From the NCBI GenBank assembly GCA_030432755.1, contig JAUILZ010000001.1, positions 203,388 to 267,387 of the forward strand: DNA of 64,000 nt, given 5' to 3'. Origin of the DNA: Gammaproteobacteria bacterium (GTDB lineage: Bacteria > Pseudomonadota > Gammaproteobacteria > Arenicellales > Poriferihabitantaceae). Made by a program: the position numbers and the translations under genes. A model generated the notes under the pieces. It was not told the origin of the DNA. It did no database searches and saw only the letters and a list, made by a program, of their open reading frames with translations. Of the stretch, positions 37,699-38,369 are shown one piece after another. How positions within the stretch are numbered: the first letter of the stretch is position 1; each line of letters starts with the position of its first letter.

Positions 37699-37716
37699 TG
37701 TCGCCTTCTGGCGACA
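37699..37716. promoter_or_regulatory. GlrR-type enhancer site TGTC-N10-GACA
   Basis: TGTCGCCTTCTGGCGACA, part of the 20-bp palindrome ATGTCGCC-TTCT-GGCGACAT. A related half-site, TGTCGCCT, lies at 37767-37774. About 150 bp upstream of the sigma-54 promoter. Confidence 0.55.
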
Positions 37717-37859
37717 TCATTTTTACCATAAGAAACAATCAGATAGCAAACAGCGAGCACTCCTGGTGTCGCCTCTTACATGCAGTTATGCGGAGCGGTA
37801 AATGGATCTCACTTTAACTGCAGGCTCTAACTGATTGAATGTGAGAGAGCAAATTCCGC

Positions 37860-37875
37860 TGGCATGGAAGCTGCT
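37860..37875 (+). promoter_or_regulatory. sigma-54 (-24/-12) promoter
   Basis: TGGCAT-GGAAG-CTGCT has GG and GC at the consensus spacing of TGGCAC-N5-TTGCW. It lies 63 nt upstream of ATG 37938 and is divergent from the sigma-54 activator operon. Confidence 0.65.
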
Positions 37876-37937
37876 ACTACCCCTGCAGGAACGGCCGAAG
37901 GGGCAGTTCCACTCAATCTCTCCCAGGAGAAGTAACA

Positions 37938-38180
37938 ATGTCACGAAAAATGCTGATCACCTCCATGGTCCTTCTCGGTGCCTCCCAGGCGTACGCCAAC
38001 GAGGAAGCGTTCAAGCAACTGGACATCGACCAGAGCGGCGCCATCAGCGCCGAGGAAGCGGCCGCCATCGAAGGCCTGCAGGAGACCATGGCCGAGTACG
38101 ACCTCAACGGGGACCGCGAACTCGACCAGCAGGAGTTCGCACAATTCGTCGCGGCCAGGGAATCGAAATCCGCTTCCTGA
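37938..38180 (+). CDS. secreted two-EF-hand calcium-binding mini-protein
   Basis: Signal peptide 'MSRKMLITSMVLLGASQAYA|NE'. Two canonical EF loops, 'DIDQSGAISAEE' and 'DLNGDRELDQQE'. SD AGGAGA upstream. Confidence 0.8.
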   Translation: MSRKMLITSMVLLGASQAYANEEAFKQLDIDQSGAISAEEAAAIEGLQETMAEYDLNGDRELDQQEFAQFVAARESKSAS

Positions 38181-38195
38181 CGGTCGTAACGGCAT

Positions 38196-38332
38196 GGTTC
38201 CGCTGATGCTGAAGCAGCGGAACCCATCCCGGGATGGGCCCGGGATGAGGGATGGTCCGCCAGGCGGCGTGAGGTAACTGACCACGCACCTGTTGGCTTC
38301 CCCCCAACCAGGCCTCACCCGCCTGGCGGACC
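38196..38332 (+). other. stacked hairpins in the 3' region of the EF-hand transcript (possible structured RNA)
   Basis: Perfect 10-bp hairpin GGTTCCGCTG/CAGCGGAACC (38196-38224). Palindrome CATCCCGGGATG (38225-38236). Long hairpin with 14-bp (GGTCCGCCAGGCGG/CCGCCTGGCGGACC) plus 6-bp stems (38254-38332). Confidence 0.5.
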
Positions 38333-38334
38333 CG

Positions 38335-38369
38335 GCCCGGCAACGCCAACGCGCATTGCCGGGCTTTTT
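38335..38369 (+). terminator. rho-independent terminator
   Basis: GCCCGGCAA-(12-nt loop)-TTGCCGGGC followed by TTTTT. Confidence 0.75.

Follow-up and report, generated by a model that had tools for sequence, protein, structure and literature searches.

A QseE/QseG/QseF-like locus of an uncultured gammaproteobacterium with a predicted sigma-54-dependent EF-hand gene and a covarying structured RNA at its 3' end

The locus described here lies in a 64-kb stretch of DNA (the window) on contig JAUILZ010000001.1 of a gammaproteobacterium of the Poriferihabitantaceae (Arenicellales). Its minus strand carries an operon for a sensor histidine kinase, a lipoprotein and a sigma-54-dependent response regulator that resembles the qseEGF operon of E. 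coli, and its plus strand carries, divergent from this operon, a gene for an 80-aa EF-hand mini-protein that is preceded by a putative sigma-54 promoter and followed by a conserved structured RNA. A previous sequence-only reading of this DNA had described a promoter with a GlrR-type enhancer, the mini-protein gene and a series of 3' hairpins, and all of the features that it listed were found in place when the sequence was checked.

The window constitutes our entire view of the source genome, and we judged whether a feature exceeds chance by its conservation in relatives rather than by counts within the window. The comparison set comprised 13 relatives, all of them Acidiferrobacterales-like metagenomic gammaproteobacteria (individual loci are identified below by L numbers). 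A genome scan with the kinase as the query returned two relatives at about 65% identity, an Acidiferrobacterales metagenome-assembled genome and an uncultured gammaproteobacterium, and a profile search with the small EF-hand protein returned 35 close homologues, whose contigs supplied 12 further distinct loci. The source labels of these 35 homologues were absent, "hypothetical protein" or "Ca2+-binding EF-hand superfamily protein". A BLAST search of plasmids gave no match, and a scan of metagenomes for the protein pattern gave only an unrelated EF-hand domain within a large open reading frame (ORF; L012). In every locus with enough flanking sequence, the EF-hand gene was divergent to the kinase-lipoprotein-regulator operon. 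The gene located 3' of the EF-hand gene and RNA varied, being a GT4 glycosyltransferase gene, a convergent gene, or an ORF of about 400 aa accompanied by Usp genes (two Usp genes; the window belongs to this last group), and the sequence after the small gene is therefore not the leader of a fixed downstream gene.

Within the operon, the genes are ordered kinase, lipoprotein, regulator with overlapping stop and start codons, the same order as in E. coli qseEGF, where the lipoprotein gene is located between the kinase and regulator genes (PMC6075780). The response regulator (34181-35563, minus strand) is GlrR/QseF-like, with a receiver domain, an AAA+ domain containing GSFTGA and a helix-turn-helix, and matched the Pfam families Response_reg, Sigma54_activat and AAA_lid_14. 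It was 54% identical to E. coli GlrR/QseF from end to end, and its C-terminal helix-turn-helix, NVTHAARQAGRNRTEFYKLL, was nearly identical to that of E. coli GlrR, NVTHAARMAGRNRTEFYKLL. Among the NCBIfam models GlrR was the best match at 573 bits, below the equivalog cut-off of 763, with NtrC second at 427. The sensor histidine kinase (36157-37638, minus strand) is GlrK/QseE-like and matched HisKA and HATPase_c; it aligned to E. coli GlrK with 29% identity over 428 aa from residue 55, periplasmic domain included (E = 2e-51), a similarity that identifies it as a GlrK/QseE homologue, either an orthologue or a paralogue. The adjacent two-component system to which the sequence-only reading had referred is thus GlrK/GlrR-like in both proteins. 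The kinase ORF was listed from a GTG at 37689, which is probably an over-extension because the relatives start at the residue homologous to M18; translation more likely begins at the ATG at 37638. The middle gene (35535-36167, minus strand) encodes a lipoprotein of about 210 aa with a C-terminal coiled coil in the position of QseG. Its lipobox cysteine was conserved in seven relatives, as was the protein family, and it had no Pfam or NCBIfam match; the comparison with E. coli QseG (YfhG) was not significant (BLASTP E = 1.2; hhalign probability 0.3%, E = 0.23). Homology to the E. coli proteins is thereby established for the kinase and the regulator, two of the three, and judged by gene order and domain architecture the system is QseE/QseG/QseF-like.

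The intergenic region between the operon and the EF-hand gene contained a series of short conserved blocks. The first of the two putative activator-binding sites, TGTCGCCTTCTGGCGACA (37699-37716), is a TGTC-N10-GACA palindrome and the sole exact match to that motif in the 64 kb; since 0.74 matches were expected and at least one was present in 50 of 100 shuffles, we base the weight of this site on the 7+7-bp palindrome, on where it lies and on its conservation, and give none to the motif count. It differed by one base from activator-binding site 1 (ABS1) of E. coli glmY, TGTCGCTTTCTGGCGACA (17/18 identical), and its GTC...GAC bases were invariant in the 13 relatives, supporting the earlier view of this palindrome as a GlrR-type enhancer. 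The second putative site, TGTCGCCTCTTACATGCA (37767-37784), has the form TGTC-N10-NNCA (TGTC-N10-TGCA in the window) and begins with the repeated element TGTCGCCT (37767-37774). The sequence-only reading had taken this element for a half-site; the repeat is present, but it is part of a full second site, in which the TGT and the distal CA were invariant and at fixed spacing in the 13 relatives. At glmY, GlrR binds three TGTCN10GACA motifs more than 100 bp upstream of the gene, and the consensus for integration host factor (IHF) is WATCARXXXXTTR (PMC3045617). The two sites in the window are spaced 68 bp apart, with centres about 177 and 110 bp upstream of the predicted transcription start, whereas ABS1 and ABS2 of E. 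coli glmY are 63 bp apart at about -188 and -125.

Two IHF-like sites accompany the activator sites. The first, AATCAGATAGCAA (37737-37749, plus strand), lies between the two activator sites, where the block AAATCAR...TA (AAATCAR-N4-(T/A)TA) was conserved in the 13 relatives; in the window it matches WATCAR-N4 without the TTR, and the full WATCARXXXXTTR match was found in four relatives (L016, L023, L025 and L029). The L016 version, AATCAGTACGTTA, is the same 13-mer as the IHF-consensus sequence seen in the E. coli glmY promoter. The second, CTAACTGATTGAA (37827-37839, minus strand; TTCAATCAGTTAG on the reverse strand), lies between activator site 2 and the promoter, and a block CTAAC..TTGAA was conserved about 25-35 nt upstream of the -24 element. 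Both sites are candidates for IHF binding.

The putative sigma-54 promoter core, TGGCATGGAAGCTGCT (37860-37875, plus strand), has GG at -24 and GC at -12, and within it TGGCATGGAAGCTGC (37860-37874) places GG and GC at the exact sigma-54 spacing of the TGGCAC-N5-TTGC type. The motif TGGCA-N7-TGC occurred four times in the window against 3.3 expected, which is not significant alone, but at the promoter it was invariant in 13/13 relatives, so the consensus-spaced core proposed from the sequence holds up. The other three occurrences (10019-10033, 10236-10250 and 46223-46237) had no evident downstream gene or enhancer context and are probably due to chance. From the position of the core, transcription would be predicted to start near 37885. 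In the alignment of the 13 intergenic regions the flanks of the conserved blocks were unalignable, and the blocks themselves stood out as invariant, in this order: ATT(C/T)TGCCAG; CAAAA-(Y)GTC-N10-GAC(R); AAATCAR-N4-(T/A)TA; TGTCG-N9-NNCA; CTAAC..TTGAA; TGGCA-N7-TGC; leader; GGAG; ATG. These comparisons give strong comparative support to a predicted GlrR-type, sigma-54-dependent promoter, the activity of which would be expected to depend on rpoN and on the regulator. Signatures of rpoN, glmS and hfq were not present in the 64-kb window.

The predicted 5' untranslated region (UTR; 37885-37937, plus strand) contains a 5'-proximal hairpin and an AGGAG Shine-Dalgarno sequence. The leader was 57-70 nt long in all relatives, each with a 5-7-bp hairpin near the 5' end that was seen by eye and whose sequence was unconserved; the leader hairpin may be a 5' stabiliser. 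On the opposite strand, the block ATT(C/T)TGCCAG (37668-37678, minus strand; TGGCA(G/A)AAT on the kinase strand) was invariant in 13/13 relatives at 30-40 nt upstream of the likely kinase ATG and is likely the extended -10 element of the kinase operon promoter. A sigma-54 reading of this invariant ATTCTGCCAG block on the kinase strand was rejected, since its GG-N8-GC spacing is wrong and an extended -10 fits better. In L023 the kinase strand carried a promoter-like call, TTGCCA-17-CAGAAT. We also observed, at 37685-37698, a -35-like hexamer (TTGCC/TTGTCC) located 17 nt upstream of the -10-like block and overlapping the CAAAA flank of activator site 1. Taken together, these elements suggest that the kinase operon has a sigma-70 promoter, which would be open to autoregulation by the regulator.

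The gene downstream of the sigma-54 core (37938-38180, plus strand, preceded by AGGAG) encodes an 80-aa pre-protein consisting of a signal peptide and a 60-aa mature domain with two EF loops, DIDQSGAISAEE and DLNGDRELDQQE, both canonical and 12 residues long. By sequence, the signal peptide comprises MSRK, a hydrophobic core and AYA|NEE, with predicted cleavage after AYA at residue 20, and it was conserved in 32 homologues, pointing to export to the periplasm. Four Pfam families scored above their cut-offs: EF-hand_1 (41.2 bits vs 25.4), the EF-hand_7 pair (31.1 vs 30), EF-hand_5 and EF-hand_6. Substitutions among 13 orthologues numbered 704, 350 and 1988 at codon positions 1, 2 and 3, and this concentration of differences at third positions indicates that the ORF is under purifying selection as a protein. 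The AlphaFold2 model, built from 32 sequences, has the fold of an EF-hand pair, with a pLDDT (predicted local distance difference test) of 79 overall, about 90 over residues 21-70 and low values over the N-terminal signal-peptide helix. Foldseek matched the model to the EF-hand lobes of calmodulin, centrin and polcalcin (TM score 0.6-0.78), and a profile search of the PDB returned calcineurin B, calmodulin, centrin and a protozoan calcium-binding protein. A genuine EF-hand ORF with a signal peptide, as the sequence-only reading had it, is accordingly supported by Pfam, homologues, codon-position pattern and model alike. The starts of the two loops are 26 residues apart, with 14 residues between the loops, a shorter spacing than in calmodulin-type pairs. 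The NCBIfam model for LanM matched only weakly (24.3 bits vs a cut-off of 135), there being two loops only, neither with Pro at position 2. The mature protein most likely binds Ca2+; the candidate metals are Ca2+ and the lanthanides. One relative, L020, differed in that its ORF (343-585; P0033) had degenerate EF loops, DAEDGGAIGAED, and no precomputed Pfam match, with the RNA module intact at 82 bits; the contig name of L020, ending in "_2x_l", suggests low coverage, and the degenerate loops may represent sequencing errors rather than divergence.

The 195-nt region 3' of the gene folds at -112.6 kcal/mol (z = -6.8 vs shuffles). It opens with a perfect 10-bp hairpin just past the stop codon (38196-38224, plus strand), a position at which the relatives had different, unalignable hairpins. 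Next comes a conserved structured core of about 119 nt (38224-38342, plus strand) formed by hairpin A, a purine-rich linker of about 9 nt and the long stem B. Hairpin A, CATCCCGGG / CCCGGGATG (38225-38247, plus strand), has the consensus 7-bp stem CYCGGG...CCCGRG. Stem B (38254-38332, plus strand) is about 19-21 bp long with small internal loops, made up in the window of a 14-bp outer stem and a 6-bp inner stem, GTGAGG/CCTCAC, and is capped by a small apical hairpin C, GTTGG / CCAAC (38292-38308, plus strand). An intrinsic terminator, GCCCGGCAACGC/GCATTGCCGGGC, with a 12-bp stem containing one mismatch followed by TTTTT, completes the region (38335-38369, plus strand); a terminator scanner missed it owing to its loop-size rule, and among the relatives examined it was found in the window only, this segment being unaligned elsewhere. 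The 3' hairpins to which the sequence-only reading had drawn attention therefore divide into two sets, the palindromic and 79-nt hairpins being conserved and the first 10-bp hairpin being specific to this lineage. The same lineage specificity applies to the terminator, which had been called a textbook example and does end in TTTTT.

Covariation in the aligned 3' regions was clearly positive. RNAalifold gave 26 pairs, 22 of them with compensatory changes, and when hairpin C was included there were 31 pairs, with 93.9% of cells paired and changes on both sides in 24/31. By helix, 6/7 pairs of hairpin A (95.9% paired) and 16/19 pairs of stem B were changed on both sides, and hairpin C, which was absent in L026 and L013, was 90% paired with double changes in two pairs. 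None of 500 shuffles reached any of the observed covariation measures, and sliding the 3' partners by 1-3 columns reduced pairing to 27-50%. Out of 424 cells, 398 paired on the sense strand vs 350 on the antisense strand, and 55 were G-U cells, from which we concluded that the structure belongs to the RNA of the EF-hand strand. A covariance model built from the module found one copy per locus at 74-117 bits (95 bits for the window copy), always 24-137 nt past the EF-hand stop codon; the rest of the window and the E. coli glmY locus gave no match to it. No helices beyond A, B and C and no pseudoknot involving the linker, the motif described below or the tail were detected at a threshold of at least four consecutive pairs at 80% or more.

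These data speak directly to the alternative that the locus is a collection of generic intergenic palindromes (REP-like, a protein site acting at the DNA level, or attC-like) together with chance promoter motifs. TGTC-N10-GACA and TGGCA-N7-TGC did occur at about chance frequency in the window, and hairpins are abundant in GC-rich genomes; however, neither the covariance model nor BLAST found a second copy in the 64 kb, sequence and position were kept across relatives that have kinases only about 65% identical and are not near-identical strains, the changes were compensatory, the G-U pairs favoured one strand, and the promoter elements were invariant in 13 relatives. We consider this explanation highly improbable. 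Two particular forms of it were rejected: a REP or other dispersed repeat by the single copy in the window (a BLAST search with the 3' region gave no dispersed copies), and an integron attC reading of stem B by the lack, on inspection of the sequence, of R''/R' core sites (RYYYAAC / GTTRRRY) at the stem ends and of an integrase nearby.

The module also lies outside the catalogued RNA families. At the gathering score Rfam returned only a tRNA in the window, relaxing the threshold to E <= 10 added only chance matches at the level of miRNAs and small RNAs (sRNAs), and four relatives gave no match at E <= 1. Small ORFs were called across the module in L018 (447-680) and L019 (453-686), each of 77 aa, and in L029 (727-843, 38 aa). 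A protein-coding ORF spanning the module was nevertheless rejected, both because of the covariation and because the module contains indels of lengths not divisible by three, and these are probably spurious calls prompted by the GC-rich structured RNA. A CsrA/RsmA sponge acting through the purine-rich linker was likewise rejected, since GGA occurred in some clades and not in the L016/L023 clade.

Several observations place the module at the end of the predicted sigma-54 transcript. The alignment of the 3' region contained no conserved promoter-like block between the ORF and the module, which is most simply explained if the module is the 3' end of that transcript, and the end of the module coincides with a terminator or U-rich tail or falls just short of one. 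In lower-GC relatives a U-rich tail directly follows stem B, for example GGUUUGUUUUUU in L023 and AGUUUUCUUC in L001, and in these stem B is therefore probably the terminator.

The module displays a conserved unpaired decamer, UGACCACGCA (38279-38288, plus strand), with the family consensus UGACC(A/G)CGCA, located on the 5' side of an internal loop of stem B. Its A, C, G, C and A were invariant and the neighbouring bases nearly so, and its mean pairwise identity was 0.77, vs 0.43 at third codon positions of the adjacent ORF. The loop is asymmetric, and in L026 and L013, where hairpin C is absent, the motif becomes part of the terminal loop. No conserved pairing partner for the motif was found within the RNA element. 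A duplex scan of the loci for sequences able to pair with the loop motif gave top sites at non-homologous positions and no conserved target; one strong site in L026, within the gene after the glycosyltransferase, was not conserved. Three motif matches in viral contigs fell inside a 1896-aa phage ORF and scored 11.9 bits with the model, and were dismissed as chance.

A rival account concerns the RNA alone. Under it, the 3' structure would act only in cis, either as a long terminator or 3'-end stabiliser or as a site for RNase III or an RNA-binding protein that sets the half-life of the EF-hand mRNA, with no trans-acting RNA and with promoter control and protein unchanged. The U-rich tails right after stem B in lower-GC relatives fit a terminator, a stem of about 20 bp is from general knowledge a plausible RNase III substrate, the scan within the loci found no trans target, and the motif sits inside a stem-loop rather than in a free seed. 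A terminator or stabiliser, though, requires a stem and not ten invariant unpaired bases at 77% identity vs 43% at synonymous positions; hairpin A and the linker are conserved too; and the lineage of the window keeps the whole module despite having a separate canonical terminator. Because an invariant unpaired decamer displayed on a long covarying stem exceeds what termination or stabilisation would need, we argue for sequence-specific recognition by RNA or protein, and we regard a role confined to cis as rather unlikely, while recognising it as a serious rival.

A different possibility is that the module is the functional counterpart, or a very distant relative, of GlmY/GlmZ, representing an ancestral RNA output of QseEGF systems that would affect the synthesis of amino sugars or of the envelope, with glmS as one possible target, by pairing or as a decoy for an RNase adaptor. 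In favour of such a kinship, envelope glycosyltransferase genes follow the locus in several relatives, glmY adjoins glrK, the promoter architecture is shared, and the best-established GlrR targets in Enterobacteriaceae are glmY and, in some genera, glmZ (PMC3045617, PMC6075780). The Rfam models for GlmY and GlmZ (RF00128, RF00083), however, had no match in the window even at E <= 10 and none in four relatives (E <= 1), the reciprocal model missed the E. coli glmY locus, and the secondary structure architecture differs. At 38283-38296, ACGCAC(C)UGUUG loosely resembles an E. coli GlmZ region, ACCCACUUGUUG (L034 1433-1604), which is the part that pairs with glmS; a pairing region of this kind would favour the kinship, but the resemblance is short and within chance, and we treat it as only a lead. 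As it stands, the likeness to GlmY would lie in an RNA output of a GlrR-type promoter adjoining the operon and not in homology, and we consider a GlmY/GlmZ counterpart improbable. Elsewhere in the window, a GLSGSGKS sequence at 55158 presumably belongs to an adenylylsulfate-kinase P-loop rather than to RapZ.

Based on these data, the reading we favour, and think probable with some reserve, is that the locus is the divergent output gene of a QseE/QseG/QseF-like system, comprising a sigma-54-dependent EF-hand gene and a likely trans-acting 3' RNA. In this scheme the phosphorylated GlrR-like activator would bind the TGTC-N10-GACA site (about -177) and the TGTC-N10-NNCA site (about -110) and, assisted by IHF-type bending, would open the sigma-54 promoter at 37860-37875. 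The transcript would have two outputs. One would be the secreted 60-aa protein with two EF hands, most likely binding periplasmic Ca2+, which might assist the kinase and lipoprotein or feed back on them in a metal-dependent manner, or might serve as an induced periplasmic Ca2+ buffer. The other would be the structured RNA of about 119 nt at the mRNA 3' end, in which stem B would display UGACC(A/G)CGCA and, in many relatives, double as the terminator hairpin. The module would most likely survive as a stable 3'-end fragment and act in trans through the displayed motif, by RNA pairing or protein binding, and would in this way form a non-coding arm of the response in the manner of CpxQ. The steps of this scheme that are inferred are regulator-dependent activation, the binding of Ca2+, a function in the periplasm, processing of the RNA and its action in trans. 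The earlier interpretation of the locus thus stands as regards the promoter, the link to the regulator, the protein and a functional 3' RNA; the processed, GlmY-analogous sRNA that it also envisaged is not yet supported.

A number of observations weigh against this account of the locus as a regulated protein-plus-RNA output. The gene for sigma-54 itself, rpoN, is not within the window; the regulator falls below the NCBIfam GlrR equivalog cut-off (573 vs 763 bits), and the lipoprotein is like QseG in position and architecture only, with no significant similarity. The relatives are all metagenomic and amount to only about three effectively independent sequences. Features of the transcript and of its 5' and 3' ends are predicted here from sequence, and the high-GC relatives are without a U-tail after stem B. 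As to the RNA, no conserved complementary target is present within the loci, and the motif sits in the internal loop of a long stem, unlike the linear seed of typical Hfq-dependent 3'UTR sRNAs; a function in cis alone, as set out above, would leave no trans-acting arm.

The locus may have broader implications for the QseEGF type of envelope signalling. GlrR/QseF is known almost only from enterobacteria, and the locus points to the output of a putatively orthologous system in a distant uncultured lineage. It offers, in the mini-protein, a concrete candidate for an accessory protein that would link a QseEGF-like envelope sensor to Ca2+, of which we found no description in the literature searched, and a new structured RNA motif outside Rfam with a covariance model and a clearly defined loop. 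The enhancer site is nearly identical to that of E. coli and the DNA-binding helix of the regulator is conserved, so the promoter could probably be tested directly in E. coli. The locus also bears on the origin of the GlmY/GlmZ branch of QseEGF signalling. On a more ambitious view, which we consider improbable, a protein plus an RNA would be the ancient output of QseE/QseG/QseF-type systems: the module would represent a novel regulatory RNA class that fills the role of GlmY/GlmZ outside Enterobacteriaceae, its UGACC(A/G)CGCA(N)UGUUG loop would either have glmS or other mRNAs for envelope synthesis as targets or titrate an RNase adaptor, and the EF-hand protein would couple the kinase to periplasmic Ca2+. 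If this were true, enterobacterial glmY would be a derived, ORF-less version of the arrangement.

Beyond the module, the window carries a block (38463-41835) with a 403-aa secreted ORF containing CVTCH, two Usp genes and a 138-aa ORF containing CKRCH; the block separates the RNA module from the GT4 glycosyltransferase gene (41917-43095). Neither Pfam nor NCBIfam gave a match for the 403-aa ORF, and from their motifs the CVTCH and CKRCH ORFs may encode c-type haem proteins. A block headed by an ORF of about 380-400 aa with Usp genes was present in L016, L020, L021 and L028; in L001, L002, L023 and L026 the block was absent and the glycosyltransferase gene came directly after the RNA. Right before the ATG of the 403-aa ORF, 38409-38461 contains direct repeats, GC(T/G)(G/A)GATTG three times and ATTGCGCC twice, which could be a regulator binding array. 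At the other end of the locus, a tRNA-Ser(CGA) gene (34043-34132, minus strand) is directly downstream of the response regulator gene.

Among the closest known systems is the glmY/GlrR system of E. coli and other Enterobacteriaceae. Both have an operon of kinase, lipoprotein and sigma-54 activator genes adjoining the target, and both promoters have TGTC-N10-GACA more than 100 bp upstream, IHF-like sites and a TGGCA-N7-TGC core. In the window, however, the target is divergent from the operon, whereas glmY is upstream of it in the same orientation, and two activator sites were recognised as opposed to three at glmY. The product here would be an EF-hand mRNA with a 3' RNA module, while glmY specifies an sRNA by itself; neither a similarity of the RNA to GlmY/GlmZ nor a homology of the lipoprotein to QseG was detectable, and the host is not an enterobacterium. 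In E. coli K-12, rpoE is a further QseF target (PMC6075780).

As regards the protein, the nearest gene arrangements are zraP-zraSR and cpxP-cpxRA. In zraP-zraSR the gene for a periplasmic Zn-binding accessory protein is divergent and has a sigma-54 promoter activated by its own regulator (PMC4987338). The zraP-zraSR locus of E. coli and Salmonella shares with the locus, as predicted here, a gene for a small periplasmic metal-binding protein, divergent from an NtrC-type operon and under sigma-54; the two differ in that ZraP binds Zn and that zraSR is itself sigma-54 dependent, as opposed to the sigma-70-like promoter suggested for the kinase operon here. The fold of ZraP is CpxP-like and not an EF-hand pair, and we know of no conserved 3' RNA for zraP. 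ZraP is reportedly a repressor of ZraSR, as the title of Appia-Ayme et al. 2012 is said to describe it. Among periplasmic EF-hand proteins, P. aeruginosa EfhP, Caulobacter CaBP and lanmodulin share with the mini-protein a Sec signal peptide and 12-residue EF loops, but the mini-protein is much smaller, with 60 aa in the mature form and a single EF-hand pair. The 14-residue spacing between its loops recalls the short spacing of lanmodulin, which differs in having four EF hands, typically with Pro at loop position 2. The literature searched held nothing linking EfhP, CaBP or lanmodulin to sigma-54 or to a QseEGF-like system.

The cpxP gene, which is divergent from its two-component operon, provides the nearest parallel for the RNA. 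Like the mini-protein gene, it encodes a periplasmic accessory protein on an mRNA whose 3'UTR holds a conserved RNA ending at the terminator, and CpxQ, the RNase E product of the cpxP 3'UTR, is the non-coding arm of an envelope response (PMC6755755). The module agrees in location with 3'UTR-derived sRNAs, in that it lies in the 3'UTR, shares the mRNA terminator and is conserved beyond synonymous sites. CpxQ, in contrast, is about 60 nt long with a linear seed and is released by RNase E and Hfq, whereas the module is about 119 nt with its motif in the loop of a long stem, and the cpxP promoter is a sigma-70 promoter with CpxR as opposed to the sigma-54 type predicted here. The parts of the locus are thus of known kinds, namely a GlrR-type sigma-54 promoter, an EF-hand protein and a structured 3'UTR RNA, and it is their combination, in which a QseEGF-like system outside Enterobacteriaceae would drive a secreted EF-hand mini-protein together with an uncatalogued covarying RNA, of which the literature searched had no description.

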